Below, one piece after another: positions 12,001 to 14,879 of a stretch of DNA of 14,879 bases. Numbering within the stretch: the first letter of the stretch is position 1; the number at the start of each line of letters is the position of its first letter. This DNA comes from a virus (Duplodnaviria; Heunggongvirae; Uroviricota; Caudoviricetes). The position numbers are program-made. The stretch is taken from IMG/VR virus record IMGVR_UViG_2667527789_000019, one strand, 5' to 3'.

Positions 12001-14879
12001 GAGTATCCATAGGCTATCGTTCCGTCATTCTGTTATTCACCACAGCGCTAAAAACGCCATGAAGGAGCAGAATACCGATTGCCTCGTTTGCTGTATGAGG
12101 TGCTTACCACACATTGGGTACACAGATGAATCAGGCGGAAGTGTGATTACCGGAAAAAATCCATTTCAGTTTGAGGGAAAAAAAACCGTAGTGCGATAAC
12201 ACTACGGCATGCCACCAAAGAAACACAACAAGAGGTCAACAATGAGTAATGGACATGACCAGACGATTTTATCATGCCGGAACAAAAGTTATGTGACACA
12301 GTCGGATAAAAACAGGTAAAGCCCACCAGCTTCATAGGGGATAACCGGAAAAATTCCGGTAAATATTTGCCTGAGTAAGTCATCAAGCGCCTGCTAAATG
12401 TGTATAGAAATGTGTATAGGATTGATTTTAGAACATGTGGAAATGGCTTTATTACTGGTGGCATGGCTTGTTGTTCTGTTCCCTTCGCCGCTCCATGACA
12501 CTTCTTAAAGTCTACTAACTTACTGAATCCTAAGGGATACGGCTTAACGCCTTCCGATAGTTTTACTCACTGTAACCAACACTGTGACTAACTTTGTTGA
12601 AGTAGTGAGCAGACCTAAGGTCTCAGTACATGCTCAAGTCAAGAACCTACCTTTATCAGCGTAATGGTGTCTTTTACATCCGTCTTAGGATGAAGACCAC
12701 TAGTCGCCTGACCGCTTCGCTTCCTTCTCACAACCGTTATAAACTAGCGTCAGTATCTTTACGGACCAAGGATAGACGTACCGCTATGGCTCACTCACGG
12801 CACATCAAGTCAGCACTTAAAGCAATCCATGCAGACAACCCTAACGCCTCTTATGAGGAGCTACGGGAGCACCTGAAGACCATTGTCGAGTGGGAACTTA
12901 GTGTCAGCCGTGATGACCTGAACGACCCGGAGTCCTACCAGCTTTACGTTGACCAGTACGATGACATTAAGTCCAACCTTCGGGAAGCTGTAGCGACCGA
13001 GCGTCTGACTGTAGACCAGCATCGCTATATTAATGACGTTATCGGTGTGCTTAAGGCCTGTCAGGATAGACTCAATGGCGATAGCTCTGGCCTATTGTCT
13101 TACCTTGAGCCTGAGACTGGCAGTCTAAGACCGTCCGTCTCCCTATCTGTATTGGCAGAACCTGAAGTCCCTGAACCTAAAGCACTGACCCTCGCGTCTC
13201 TCATTGAGCAGTACGAGCAGGAGAACGCCCAGAACTGGAAGCCAGCGACCCTAAGCGAAAACCGAGCGTCACACTCTACGCTAATCGAGATATTCGACTA
13301 TCTGGATATTCAGGATGTCGGCAAGGCGACCCGTGCAGATATGCTCAGAGTTCGTGAAGTCCTCCAGCAGCTACCGAAGAACCGCAAGCAACGCTTTAAG
13401 TCTATGCCGCTGTCTGACTTGCTGAACCGGGAGTCTAAGACTGACTGTCTGGACGTCGTTACCATTAACAATAAATATCTTATCAAGATGGCTGCTGTGT
13501 TTAAGTGGGCGGTACGCAACGACTTGATAGCTAAGAACCTGACCGAAGGTCTTGAGCTGAAAGTCCCTCAGCGTAAAGCCTCCGACGCTCGTGATGCGTT
13601 CAGTCCTGAGCAGGTAGGGCAACTACTGGTCGCAGCTAAAGCGTACTCGCAGAAGACCTCAGGTAAGCCATACCATTATTACGTCACCGCTCTGGCTGCG
13701 ATTACAGGTGCGAGACTTAACGAGGTGGCCCAACTTCAGGTTAAAGATGTCAGGACCACTGAGGCTGGGACCGTTTTTATCCATATCAACGAAGACGATA
13801 GCAGCCTGCCGGGTAAGAGTATCAAGAACGCCCACAGTGACCGCTGTGTCCCGTTGGTAGATGGTGCTTATGGTTTTGTATTGGCTGACTTTATGTCACT
13901 CGTGGAAGACCGTAGAAAGACTGAGGGTGATAATGCTATGGTGTTCAATGGCCTCAAGCTAATGAAGAACGGCTACGGTGAGCAGGTTAGCAAGTGGTTT
14001 AACCGAACGTTGCTGCCCAAAGTCCTCGCTGACCGTAGCGGCTTAGCTTTTCACTCGTTTAGACATACAGTTGCGACCCAGTTAAAACAACATGGGGTCG
14101 AGTTAGCGTATGCTCAGGCGATTATGGGTCATAGCTCAGGGTCTATAACTTACGACCGTTACGCGAAAGAGGTCGAGGTGGAAACGCTGAAAGAAAAATT
14201 AGCGGAGTCATTGTCAGTAAAAAAATAGACGGAAAGTAATCGCATAGGGATAGCGGAACGTGAGGACGTAATGGTCAAAGAATTTTTAGTTAGCAAAGAA
14301 AATAAGCCTTCATATGAATGTATGAATACTGCTGAAACTTGTTTGGGGCTGGCTGGAATGGCTTCGGAAGATTGGCAACGTGAGCATCATTGCCGCACAG
14401 GTATAATATTTACTGCTTTTGCTATTGAGGCAATGTTCATCTTCTATAGAAAACAGGTTGACCCCGGCTACGATAAGACGCAGAAAGAGTGCAGAAAGAC
14501 AATGCACAAGAATACGTTAAAGTTGTGCGGTATAAACAATTATATGGGGACAAAACCTTACCAAATTATCAAAGAGTGTCTTGAGGTAAGAGACGCTATT
14601 GCTCACGGCGATTCGTATACTTCGAGCTTTAATTTCTCGGCGGATCATTTGGATAACCAAGACGATATTGCAAAAAGTGTCCTGGCGGTAAACTCTGAAC
14701 AATTTCGGGGATTAACTGTTGAGCGCCTTGCAAAATACATTGAAATGGCAAAGCATATTGACCATGAGATTTCTGATAATGGTTACAGGCCTTCTGAAGG
14801 TTACCTTCCAGCAGCCGAGCGCAGAAGTCTGATGTTAGCTTTTGGCGTCAGTGGTGTGTCAATGTGGCCCAGTGCTTGA

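Follow-up and report, generated by a model that had tools for sequence, protein, structure and literature searches.

A satellite and an independent integrase-linked islet at Escherichia coli glyU, with a candidate single-gene HEPN ribonuclease in the islet slot

Introduction

HEPN RNases are recurrent effectors of abortive-infection and toxin-antitoxin systems, HEPN proteins being the classic toxins of MNT-HEPN toxin-antitoxin pairs, and HEPN effectors that travel on mobile elements beside integrases are a familiar theme. The HEPN families of these systems, including HepT/MNT-HEPN, Abi2/AbiD/F, MAE_28990/MAE_18760 and RiboL-PSP, are built on a four-helix core, with an Rx4-6H motif where core helix 3 ends and the next loop begins, a polar residue (N, D or H) directly after the arginine, and a further conserved acidic position in helix 2 that usually belongs to Ex3[K/R] (Anantharaman et al. 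2013, PMC3710099). Some domains of the HEPN clan bind substrate rather than catalyse, and such non-catalytic domains are typically without Rx4-6H (PMC3710099).

By genomic position, the described system closest to the one reported here is PD-T7-4, or RAZR, an RNase that combines a zinc finger with a DUF4145 HEPN domain (Vassallo et al. 2022, PMC9519451; Nature 2026, PMC13017515). RAZR has been established by experiment as an abortive-infection HEPN RNase that works as a single gene, with no antitoxin needed (PMC13017515), and is known to “often overlap an integrase gene” (PMC9519451). Also close are the described tRNA-targeting islets and tandem arrays and the defence hotspots of P4-like satellites, with which the glyU islet described below shares a tyrosine integrase at the tRNA 3' end, flanking tRNA-end repeats, tandem build-up at one tRNA gene and a variable defence gene beside the integrase.

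Here, we analyse a stretch of 14,879 nucleotides from the IMG/VR virus record IMGVR_UViG_2667527789_000019 (referred to as a whole as the window), most of which is occupied by a satellite with a P4-type integrase. A first-pass annotation, made from the sequence alone, had proposed that a second mobile element, possibly a defence islet, adjoins the right end of this satellite, with a second integrase gene and an AT-rich open reading frame of 202 codons (ORF202) as its cargo. We demonstrate that the window ends in an independent islet with its own boundaries, and that ORF202 occupies a swappable one-gene slot which in allelic islets carries RAZR.

Results

Two independent elements are stacked at glyU

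In E. coli FHI_NMBU_11, glyU is followed by the satellite with its P4-type integrase, a degenerate tRNA-Gly 3' fragment, an islet of 6,415 bp, a second tRNA-end repeat and then the ETT2 type III secretion island (Table 1). When aligned with the 3' end of glyU, the degenerate fragment has one C deleted and two mismatches. The second repeat, CTCCCTTCGCCCGCTCCA, parts the islet from the GH15/ETT2 genes and lies 6,415 bp downstream in satellite-bearing and satellite-free backgrounds alike: the islet is bounded by window 12473-12495 and positions 26894-26911 in locus L001, and by the glyU end and positions 21422-21439 in locus L002. The chromosomal flank, beginning ATTTATCTTCACC, is identical after whichever element comes last.

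Table 1. Coordinates of the features at the junction of satellite and islet (positions in the window)
Feature	Position	Strand	Description
Tandem 12-mer, AAATGTGTATAG x2	12397-12420	+	Inside the satellite right end; candidate arm-type site of the P4-type integrase
Degenerate copy of the tRNA-Gly(CCC) 3' end, GTTCTGTTCCCTTCGCCGCTCCA	12473-12495	+	Satellite attR and simultaneously the left boundary of the islet (attL)
Non-coding leader of the islet left end, 134 nt	12496-12629	+	GC 0.41; same as the DNA after intact glyU in ECCNB20-2
Tyrosine recombinase, 532 aa, WP_000920422.1	12630-14228	+	glyU-specific islet integrase
Swappable single-gene cassette	14183-14879, to window-equivalent 14890	+	From comparison of L001 with L003
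ORF202, 202 aa, WP_000237836.1	14271-14879	+	Predicted HEPN-fold protein, invariant R107-x4-H112; candidate single-gene abortive-infection RNase

Genomes of three kinds were found, with the islet alone, the satellite alone, or both. In satellite-free strains an intact glyU is followed at once by the same integrase gene and ORF202, the match to the window starting at position 12473 or 12479, directly at the tRNA gene. Strain 2015C-3121, on the other side, has glyU, the satellite and ETT2 without the islet; its satellite closes with the same tRNA fragment, after which comes the ETT2-side flank. The islet-free junction is seen in locus L019, which has ETT2 and no islet. Since islet-only and satellite-only strains both exist, the two are independent integrative elements stacked at glyU. 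The tandem arrangement proposed at first pass is therefore borne out by two of the comparisons that had been suggested for it, a search for flanking direct repeats and one for empty-site strains, and the integrase gene and ORF202 did not prove to be core parts of a single island with positions 1-12600. The proposed order of arrival is probably the reverse, however. The annotation had the second element inserting beside the satellite, but satellite-free strains carry the islet directly at an intact glyU, and the satellite is thus most likely the later arrival, integrated between glyU and an already resident islet, although the junctions alone are no proof of order.

About 620 bp upstream of the integrase gene (12011-12629) are without an annotated RefSeq CDS, in line with the roughly 600 bp of non-coding DNA noted earlier; the only reading frame there is a mechanical 105-aa ORF on the minus strand, with no family match. 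The integrase promoter and the binding sites close to the core are presumably situated in the leader of the islet. A consensus scan returned no sigma-70-like promoter in the leader, nor any promoter elsewhere in 12300-14879.

The tandem 12-mer belongs to the satellite

The twice-repeated 12-mer had been put forward as a possible arm-type site upstream of the 532-aa integrase gene. The repeat is present, but it lies to the left of the attR fragment, within the satellite and outside the second element. Its GTGTATAG core occurs four times in the window against 0.23 copies expected by chance, at 32-39 (-), 90-97 (-), 12400-07 (+) and 12412-19 (+), that is, at both ends of the satellite, and a degenerate tandem pair adjoins glyU just upstream of the window (L001 7988-8011). 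Because the core recurs at the other end of the satellite, the tandem is a candidate arm-type site for the P4-type rather than the 532-aa integrase; the satellite integrase has an Arm-DNA-bind_3 domain. A search for arm sites of the 532-aa integrase itself found no repeats in the left leader of the islet. It also turned up AAAGTCTAC, which is common to the satellite attL region and not significant, and GGTCTGGCT-like repeats near the right end of the islet.

The islet integrase is not of the P4 type

The call of a 532-aa tyrosine recombinase was correct, the protein matching both Pfam Phage_integrase (PF00589, residues 325-513, E = 1.5e-18) and the phrog_1 integrase profile (E = 4e-45). Candidate catalytic residues, located by inspection rather than structural alignment, are R362, K399, H475, R478, H501 and Y511. 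Of two further observations on this protein, the DUF6538-like N-terminus is matched only below threshold (residues 7-65, E = 0.007, 16.5 bits where 27 are required), while the absence of similarity to the P4-type integrase nearly holds, the sole exception being a pairwise match within the catalytic region (100 aa, 27% identity, E = 2e-4). The integrase gene was matched in 386 of 5,426 complete E. coli genomes, and homologues in other Enterobacterales sit approximately 135 nt after tRNA-Gly(CCC) at 11 of the 14 loci examined. The islet differs from the tRNA-targeting islets and P4-like hotspots already described in this integrase, which is not of the P4 type, with its 532 aa, long N-terminal region and weak DUF6538 match, and in a slot that is strictly one gene and starts within the integrase coding sequence.

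The slot after the integrase holds a swappable one-gene cassette

The islet consists of the integrase gene, the one-gene slot, about 830 nt of conserved, gene-poor DNA and a set of backbone genes, including one for a protein with a weak, sub-threshold resemblance to Rha/Ant. Searches found no function for the backbone proteins of 166, 61, 102, 163 and 329 aa, and no replication, packaging or transfer genes are recognisable in the islet.

Comparison of L001 with an allelic, RAZR-bearing islet (L003) revealed a precise cassette swap. The two are 95% identical up to window position 14182 and 96% identical again from window-equivalent 14891, with approximately 710 bp of non-homologous DNA between the identical flanks. 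Within the cassette (GC 0.42) lie the final 15 codons of the integrase gene, the spacer of 42 nt and ORF202. The earlier expectation that cargo continues beyond the window holds for the islet as such, which runs about 4 kb further to its distal repeat, but not for variable cargo, as the one-gene cassette ends 11 nt past the window.

In L003, ORF202 is replaced by a 219-aa DUF4145 protein (PADLOC PD-T7-4 model, E = 1e-102; DUF4145, E = 1.5e-13) that carries R146/H154; C16, C19, C49 and C52 are conserved in the RAZR-like alleles. In the 19 species-representative genomes that have this integrase, the slot is clearly RAZR-like in 10 and ORF202-like in three. One further RAZR match is weak, Pfam assigning the protein to Bro-N and the RAZR-like part being a tail of only 24 residues. 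A third occupant, an uncharacterised 192-aa protein, was seen in Citrobacter, and in some islets with the same integrase the slot is empty or without ORF202. Almost always, the slot of this islet family holds a HEPN gene. That allelic islets carry PD-T7-4/RAZR in the same slot strongly suggests, by analogy, a defence role for ORF202, and agrees with the possible defence islet of the first-pass annotation.

Despite the shared cassette position, RAZR and ORF202 have no detectable similarity in sequence or profile (hhalign probability 0.1), and ORF202 has no match to the PD-T7-4 HMM or to DUF4145 (PADLOC, Pfam). RAZR has an N-terminal Cys4 zinc ribbon; ORF202 has none, since its cysteines (17, 24, 41, 74, 86 and 103) form no CxxC pair. 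The motif is R-x7-H in RAZR and R-x4-H in ORF202, and the N-terminal ENKPSYECM segment and C-terminal AFGxSGxSxW tail, both conserved in the ORF202 family, are its own. A description of ORF202 as a RAZR without the zinc finger was considered and rejected, as hhalign of the two families shows no relationship.

ORF202 is a conserved gene with a predicted HEPN fold

ORF202 begins exactly 42 nt after the integrase stop codon, as described at first pass, and the window ends on the final base of the ORF202 stop codon. It is also AT-richer than the integrase gene, as had been remarked (GC 0.42 against 0.50; GC3 0.40 against 0.55). Judged by its dN/dS of 0.10-0.12, measured against copies 88% and 80% related, ORF202 is a real gene under purifying selection.

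In a structural model, the predicted core of ORF202 is formed by four helices, the second and third separated by an insert; confidence is low in residues 114-129 and in the C-terminal tail. The fold search placed the model closest to HepT, SO_3166 and other HEPN proteins. The Rx4H motif (R107-D-A-I-A-H112) is placed by the model at the C-terminal end of helix 95-111, with a loop after it. R107 and H112 are the sole invariant columns in 34 sequences whose identity goes down to 17%, and the residue right after R107 is D or N throughout this alignment. E53, at least 90% conserved, falls in helix 34-63 (helix 2), where the residue four positions further is I or N, not K/R. On the strength of the model, ORF202 is assigned the HEPN fold with Rx4H in the canonical position, which bears out the earlier reading of RDAIAHG as an R-x4-H motif in a helical, HEPN-like context.

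The structure and profile searches proposed as a check of this assignment diverged: the fold search returned HEPN neighbours, whereas profile matches, although to HEPN families, were all sub-threshold. Annotation with Pfam, NCBIfam, PADLOC and PHROGs gave nothing above threshold for ORF202, and no curated HEPN profile exceeded its threshold (HEPN_RiboL-PSP, E = 0.02, 15.2 bits against a cut-off of 28.4). Within the family, sub-threshold Pfam matches were to RiboL-PSP (8 of 34 sequences), MAE_28990 (3 of 34, best 2e-4) and Cthe2314 (1 of 34). Profile searches with alignments of 20 and 34 family members found nothing among PDB sequences, and a viral fold search of BFVD gave no meaningful match.

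ORF202 resembles the HEPN RNase families of abortive infection and toxin-antitoxin modules in its four-helix core, in Rx4H and in its occurrence on mobile elements beside defence genes, and may share their acidic helix-2 residue. It differs from those families in scoring below threshold with every curated profile, in having about 90 more residues after the motif, the conserved tail among them, and in belonging to a very small family that by name is found only in Enterobacterales; from the MNT-HEPN toxins it differs in having no MNT antitoxin as a neighbour.

The ORF202 family is rare and dispersed

ORF202 is found in 20 of the 5,426 E. coli genomes, the allele of this window in 10. A 100% identical protein is present in an Enterobacter hormaechei record, with the same islet genes, downstream of actS, and Escherichia fergusonii appears in the name given to the cluster of identical proteins. 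Some lineages carry a frameshifted copy of the gene, among them a Shigella flexneri genome whose integrase is 100% identical. A version of the islet inside ynfE combines a 31%-identical integrase with a homologous ORF202 and backbone. In other settings, a homologue follows a 33%-identical integrase and precedes an RVT_1 reverse transcriptase, another adjoins Abi_2 on a Salmonella plasmid-like contig, and a third is carried on a Brenneria ICE between TIR_2, CdiI_2, pP_pnuc and HEPN_LA2681.

A tblastn search of 50,697 phage records gave no match to ORF202, no PADLOC 2023 model covers the family, and a literature search for WP_000237836 found no citing paper. No accession or signature peptide of the family is among the DefensePredictor supplement entries listed; the system DS-44 appears in the bioRxiv version of that work as cloned “to avoid an upstream integrase”. 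The family is rare, unnamed and undescribed, and in kind it is ordinary.

Discussion

The explanation that accounts best for these observations, and one that we hold to be reasonably probable, is that two elements are stacked at glyU and that ORF202, in the slot of the islet, is a single-gene HEPN RNase active in abortive-infection defence. We infer for ORF202 an RNase activity, a trigger and a defence phenotype along the following lines. The gene would be co-transcribed with the integrase gene, or reached by read-through, and its product, a HEPN protein that probably dimerises to form a composite active site like other HEPN RNases, would stay inactive until a trigger derived from the phage sets it to cleave cellular RNA (tRNA, rRNA or mRNA). 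Translation would then halt and the infection would be aborted, with no partner gene involved.

The near-exclusive presence of HEPN genes in the slot could also reflect the islet's own biology, not host defence. Such constancy is what a maintenance function predicts, and ORF202 might stabilise the islet as the toxin of an addiction (post-segregational killing) module, paired with an unrecognised antitoxin such as a small RNA or a neighbouring backbone product, rather than act as an anti-phage sensor-effector. Its best structural matches are indeed HepT-type toxins, and the stretch of about 830 nt after the slot is conserved and non-coding. However, the swapped cassette is one gene and the backbone is common to RAZR islets, which leaves no cassette-specific partner, and the neighbours of ORF202 homologues in other genera all differ. 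No nucleotidyltransferase (MNT) gene was found in the islet or beside the homologues, an Rfam scan of the islet returned no RNA, and RAZR, which takes the slot in allelic islets, is proven to defend as a single gene and dispenses with an antitoxin. On this evidence we regard an addiction module as unlikely.

Still less probable, in fact very unlikely, is a role for ORF202 as a non-catalytic accessory of the integrase, in which a helical or HEPN-like protein would serve islet excision and integration, whether by setting the direction of recombination, by regulating it or through a nucleotide-binding domain. Linkage to the integrase is tight, ORF202 starting 0-160 nt after the integrase stop codon in each of the nine E. 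coli islet contexts examined and with several integrase lineages; a promoter of its own is not predicted for it, and substrate-binding domains do exist within the HEPN clan (PMC3710099). Against this, homologues without an adjacent integrase were found on the Salmonella plasmid-like contig, the Brenneria ICE and a small Klebsiella replicon, and the same integrase occurs with the slot empty or without ORF202. The only residues held invariant are the R and H of the motif that non-catalytic HEPN domains typically lose, and the alternative occupant of the slot is an RNase effector.

That the integrase gene and ORF202 are instead part of the satellite (1-12472) or left-end genes of ETT2 is barely credible and was rejected on the junction evidence: they are contiguous with both and, before the junctions were analysed, only the 620 bp or so without annotated CDS lay between, but the islet is set off on either side by tRNA-end repeats, genomes exist with satellite and ETT2 and no islet as well as with islet and ETT2 and no satellite, the same backbone occurs in ynfE, far from ETT2, and the integrase gene is limited to a minority of E. 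coli genomes.

The preferred reading, of ORF202 as a single-gene abortive-infection RNase, has a bolder extension that we consider rather unlikely. ORF202 might found a new kind of single-protein anti-phage immune sensor with a distinct mechanism, a minimal HEPN RNase whose N-terminal segment and AFGxSGxSxW tail would sense a trigger other than that of RAZR, with the islets acting as a “HEPN shuttle”. If this were true, the glyU islet slot would be under selection to exchange HEPN effectors, and the Rha, KilA-N or Bro-N regulators of the islets might confer a satellite-like responsiveness to phage.

With ORF202, a concrete candidate of 202 aa is at hand for a new anti-phage RNase encoded by a single gene, and a natural isogenic comparison with RAZR is available, since either gene may occupy the same islet backbone. 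The compact, integrase-linked one-gene slot is conserved across Enterobacterales and may be mined for more effectors. In addition, the accretion of satellite, islet and ETT2 at glyU provides a clean worked example of such an array, one that matters for annotation of the ETT2 region and for the way in which “islands” at tRNA genes are read.

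Two independent elements stacked at glyU

Window 12000-14879, the stretch tested, has an exact match (100% identity) in E. coli FHI_NMBU_11 (NZ_CP045712.1; locus L001, whose coordinates exceed those of the window by 8001), where the gene order runs from actS through the tRNA-Gly(CCC) gene glyU into the satellite, which encodes a P4-type integrase, a DUF927 primase-like protein, SSB, PerC and a Q antiterminator. To its right follow the genes for a 532-aa integrase and ORF202 (the 202-aa cargo protein, WP_000237836.1) and five hypothetical genes, and then a GH15 (ygeQ-like) gene and the ETT2 type III secretion genes. 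In strains that lack the satellite, ECCNB20-2 among them, intact glyU is followed by the same DNA as the degenerate glyU 3' end (Table), and this integrase and ORF202 (99.9-100% identity) begin ~135 nt past the tRNA. In both backgrounds a second tRNA-end repeat, CTCCCTTCGCCCGCTCCA, follows after 6,415 bp, between the last hypothetical gene and GH15. Strain 2015C-3121 has glyU, the satellite and GH15/ETT2 and lacks the islet, and the chromosomal flank ATTTATCTTCACCTGATC... adjoins whichever element stands last. The satellite and the integrase-ORF202 islet are thus independent units stacked at one tRNA gene, neither lying within ETT2, and we hold this tandem anatomy to be nearly certain. A second mobile element beside the satellite, as the first-pass annotation had proposed, is borne out by its own tRNA-end repeats and by the occurrence of each element without the other; that the integrase and ORF202 belong to ETT2 or to the satellite, as core parts of an island spanning 1-12600, is contradicted by the junctions and extremely improbable.

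Both arrival orders yield the same array, and the junctions alone give no proof of order; it is likelier that the satellite entered an intact glyU in a strain already holding the islet, because the satellite attR has a deleted base in its core. The sequence AAAGTCTAC is found at corresponding positions 12-33 nt after the CCA end at the satellite attL (L001 7891-7909) and the islet attL (L001 20508-20516; window 12507-12515), which is not statistically significant on its own.

Features of the satellite-islet junction, the islet and the repeats (window coordinates unless marked L001)
Feature	Position	Strand	Location	Basis
Degenerate copy of glyU 3' end, GTTCTGTTCCCTTCGCCGCTCCA	12473-12495		Satellite attR, islet attL side	Alignment to glyU
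Tandem 12-mer, AAATGTGTATAG	12397-12420		Inside satellite, left of attR	
GTGTATAG core	12400-12407, 12412-12419, 32-39, 90-97	+, +, -, -	Both satellite ends, inverted to each other	
532-aa integrase ORF	12630-14228	+		ORF call, Pfam/PHROG matches
ORF202	14271-14879		42-nt spacer after integrase; stop codon is the window's last base	
~830-nt stretch without annotated genes	L001 22892-23712 (window-equivalent 14891-15711)		Just past window end, after the cargo slot	

The tandem 12-mer is present, and its earlier reading as an arm-type site for the second integrase is not supported, since it lies inside the satellite and its core recurs at the satellite's other end. Four copies of the core occur in the window against 0.23 expected by chance, the two leftmost where the P4-type integrase ORF begins, and a degenerate tandem pair of the 12-mer lies just upstream of the window (L001 7988-8011), between glyU and that integrase, which carries an arm-DNA-binding domain. 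These repeats are probably arm-type sites of the P4-type integrase and not of the 532-aa enzyme. A separate cluster of GGTCTGGCT-like direct and inverted repeats, outside the window at L001 26500-26727 and 170-400 nt inside the islet's right repeat, might serve the 532-aa integrase as arm-type sites or be iterons. A mechanical 105-aa ATG ORF (12147-12464, minus strand), without RefSeq annotation and without a match in a Pfam search, is also present in the "non-coding" right end of the satellite.

A one-gene cargo slot after the integrase

The recombinase, the gap and the 202-aa ORF are all present as first annotated, and the compositional step is real (GC 0.42 in ORF202 against 0.50 in the integrase; GC3 0.40 against 0.55). 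The 532-aa protein is a tyrosine recombinase (Pfam Phage_integrase, E=1.5e-18, residues 325-513; phrog_1, E=4e-45), with candidate catalytic residues R362, K399, H475, R478, H501 and Y511 located by inspection. Its supposed DUF6538-like N-terminus is a sub-threshold match (E=0.007, 16.5 bits against a cut-off of 27), and its dissimilarity to the P4-type integrase (1-1254) holds save for a catalytic-region stretch of 100 aa with 27% identity.

Of 5426 complete E. coli genomes, 386 carry the integrase gene, and in most of these homology ends at 14182, 15 codons ahead of the integrase stop. Between L001 and an allelic islet (L003), 95% identity up to this point is followed by a non-homologous segment of ~710 bp and then by 96% identity, resuming 12 nt past the ORF202 stop. 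The swapped segment in L003 encodes a DUF4145 protein of 219 aa, in a gene that overlaps the integrase stop; R146 and H154 are both present in this protein, and the PADLOC model that it matches is PD-T7-4 (E=1e-102). The PD-T7-4 protein, also named RAZR, is an RNase with a zinc finger and a HEPN domain; experiments showed that it acts by abortive infection and needs R146 and H154 (PMC13017515). According to Vassallo et al., it "often overlaps an integrase gene" (PMC9519451).

Matches to RAZR-like genes came from 180 E. coli genomes and matches to ORF202-like genes from 20, and diverged glyU integrase lineages (73-78% protein identity) carry one or the other. The slot was also compared across 19 species-representative genomes, drawn from about a dozen genera of Enterobacterales: it held a RAZR-like gene in 10 clear cases and one weak one (a Bro-N protein in which just a tail of 24 residues is RAZR-like), an ORF202-like gene in three, a 192-aa protein without assignment in one and no clear cargo gene in four. 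Of 14 loci checked, 11 had the integrase ~135 nt downstream of tRNA-Gly(CCC). In Citrobacter sp. Awk 4 (L029 5097-5675), an unrelated 192-aa protein is a third occupant, following a 96%-identical integrase; it contains RGAEEH, another R-x4-H, had no match in a family search and may be another effector.

Beyond the slot the islet backbone is conserved, comprising the ~830-nt stretch, a 166-aa protein, two small ORFs, and 163-aa and 329-aa proteins; family searches gave these products no assignable function. The 166-aa protein has a weak, sub-threshold Rha/Ant-like match, and allelic islets have an unambiguous Rha/Ant or KilA-N protein there. ORF202- and RAZR-bearing islets share the first ~600 nt of the ~830-nt stretch (L001 22892-23493) with 96% conservation; the whole stretch holds only a mechanical 66-aa ORF (L001 23292-23492) and had no match in an Rfam search.

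A RAZR-bearing islet in E. coli LR-33 is adjoined by another element (L005 1-12232, with homology to the window from position 12400 on) that ends in the satellite's right-end sequence. Its products include giant SLT-domain proteins, a YafO toxin and a Rap1a/Tai immunity protein, so the same att-proximal end serves different cargo.

Evidence for mobility of the islet, and decay of ORF202

In an Enterobacter hormaechei record the ORF202 protein is 100% identical and the same islet genes lie downstream of actS, and the identical-protein cluster bears E. fergusonii in its source's name. The 58.7-kb E. hormaechei "plasmid" pEh5_2 carries recJ, prfB, lysS, idi and actS with the islet and its 100%-identical ORF202 protein, has an ISSen4 copy at the expected integrase position, and looks like a chromosomal segment. 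In E. coli EC21Z-137 (L006 6399-12218), an 88%-identical ORF202 and a homologous Rha-163aa-329aa backbone accompany an integrase of only 31% identity in an element that splits ynfE, and the islet appears to have been retargeted by an integrase-module swap. The identical protein in other species, the identical integrase in Shigella flexneri and this element in ynfE suggest that the islet is mobile. A Shigella flexneri genome (SFBU1023), like E. coli ECMA0423, has a 100%-identical integrase beside an ORF202 frameshifted after about residue 134 (5143-5750 in both loci), so the gene is decaying in some lineages.

ORF202 as a candidate HEPN protein

The ORF202 family is very small: among 5.8 billion proteins it forms 28 clusters (90% identity), and a profile search of 1.84 billion representatives recovered 35 members; searches of curated families found none for it. 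It is under purifying selection (dN/dS 0.10-0.12). In a 34-member alignment reaching down to 17% identity, R107 and H112, within the RDAIAHG motif of the first-pass annotation, are the only invariant residues; D or N directly follows R107, and conservation reaches 90% or more at A49, F50, E53, A111 and G113. The AlphaFold2 model is all-helical (pLDDT 79, pTM 0.75) and places R-x4-H at the C-terminal end of helix 95-111, running into a loop; E53 sits in helix 2, which is long, and an insert separates core helices 2 and 3. HEPN domains are defined by the same arrangement of motif and helices (Anantharaman et al. 2013), and the best Foldseek matches are HepT/HEPN toxins, with weak E-values. Sub-threshold Pfam matches fell to RiboL-PSP (8/34 members), MAE_28990 (3/34, best 2e-4) and Cthe2314 (1/34), no HEPN profile reaching its curated threshold in any of the 34. 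The earlier HEPN-like call is upheld by structure and motif and not by profile score; ORF202 very probably belongs to the HEPN superfamily.

Homologues occur in Salmonella (on IncF plasmids, and on a plasmid-like contig where resolvase and Abi_2 genes flank the homologue), in a Brenneria ICE among TIR_2, CdiI_2, pP_pnuc and HEPN_LA2681 genes, and on small Klebsiella contigs (~5.7-7.9 kb) with a Rep gene and a resolvase. In metagenome and Logan contigs (L016-L018), what looks like a small defence islet lies between pyk and zwf-side genes: a 54%-identical homologue directly follows a 33%-identical integrase, and next come an ORF of 174 aa and an RVT_1 reverse transcriptase. No neighbour is conserved across these loci, and a search of a phage collection found no homologue, a pattern that fits a self-sufficient single-gene defence or conflict module of mobile elements.

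Discussion

ORF202 would be a HEPN RNase, probably dimeric with a composite active site by analogy with other HEPN enzymes. The 42-nt gap, a predicted GAGGA ribosome-binding site and the absence of any predicted terminator between the genes suggest expression together with the integrase. The protein would stay inactive until released by a phage-derived trigger, and would then cleave cellular RNA and abort infection. We lean modestly towards such an anti-phage abortive-infection role. Set against MNT-HEPN toxin-antitoxin pairs, ORF202 has no MNT gene partner, and an addiction toxin with an unrecognised antitoxin seems unlikely; an integrase accessory or non-catalytic HEPN protein is more doubtful still.

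In proposed mode of action, ORF202 may stand closest to RAZR and other single-protein HEPN Abi effectors. Membership of RAZR was rejected: ORF202 has no DUF4145, PD-T7-4 HMM match or zinc ribbon, and family comparison revealed no sequence relationship. PADLOC 2023 has no model for the family, no paper citing the accession was found, and the parts of the DefensePredictor supplementary tables compared contain no member. We found no description of this family, a putative and uncharacterised HEPN protein in a neatly defined integrase-linked slot. Such a protein is not surprising in principle, and it is a good candidate for experiment, with a natural control in the RAZR-bearing islet.
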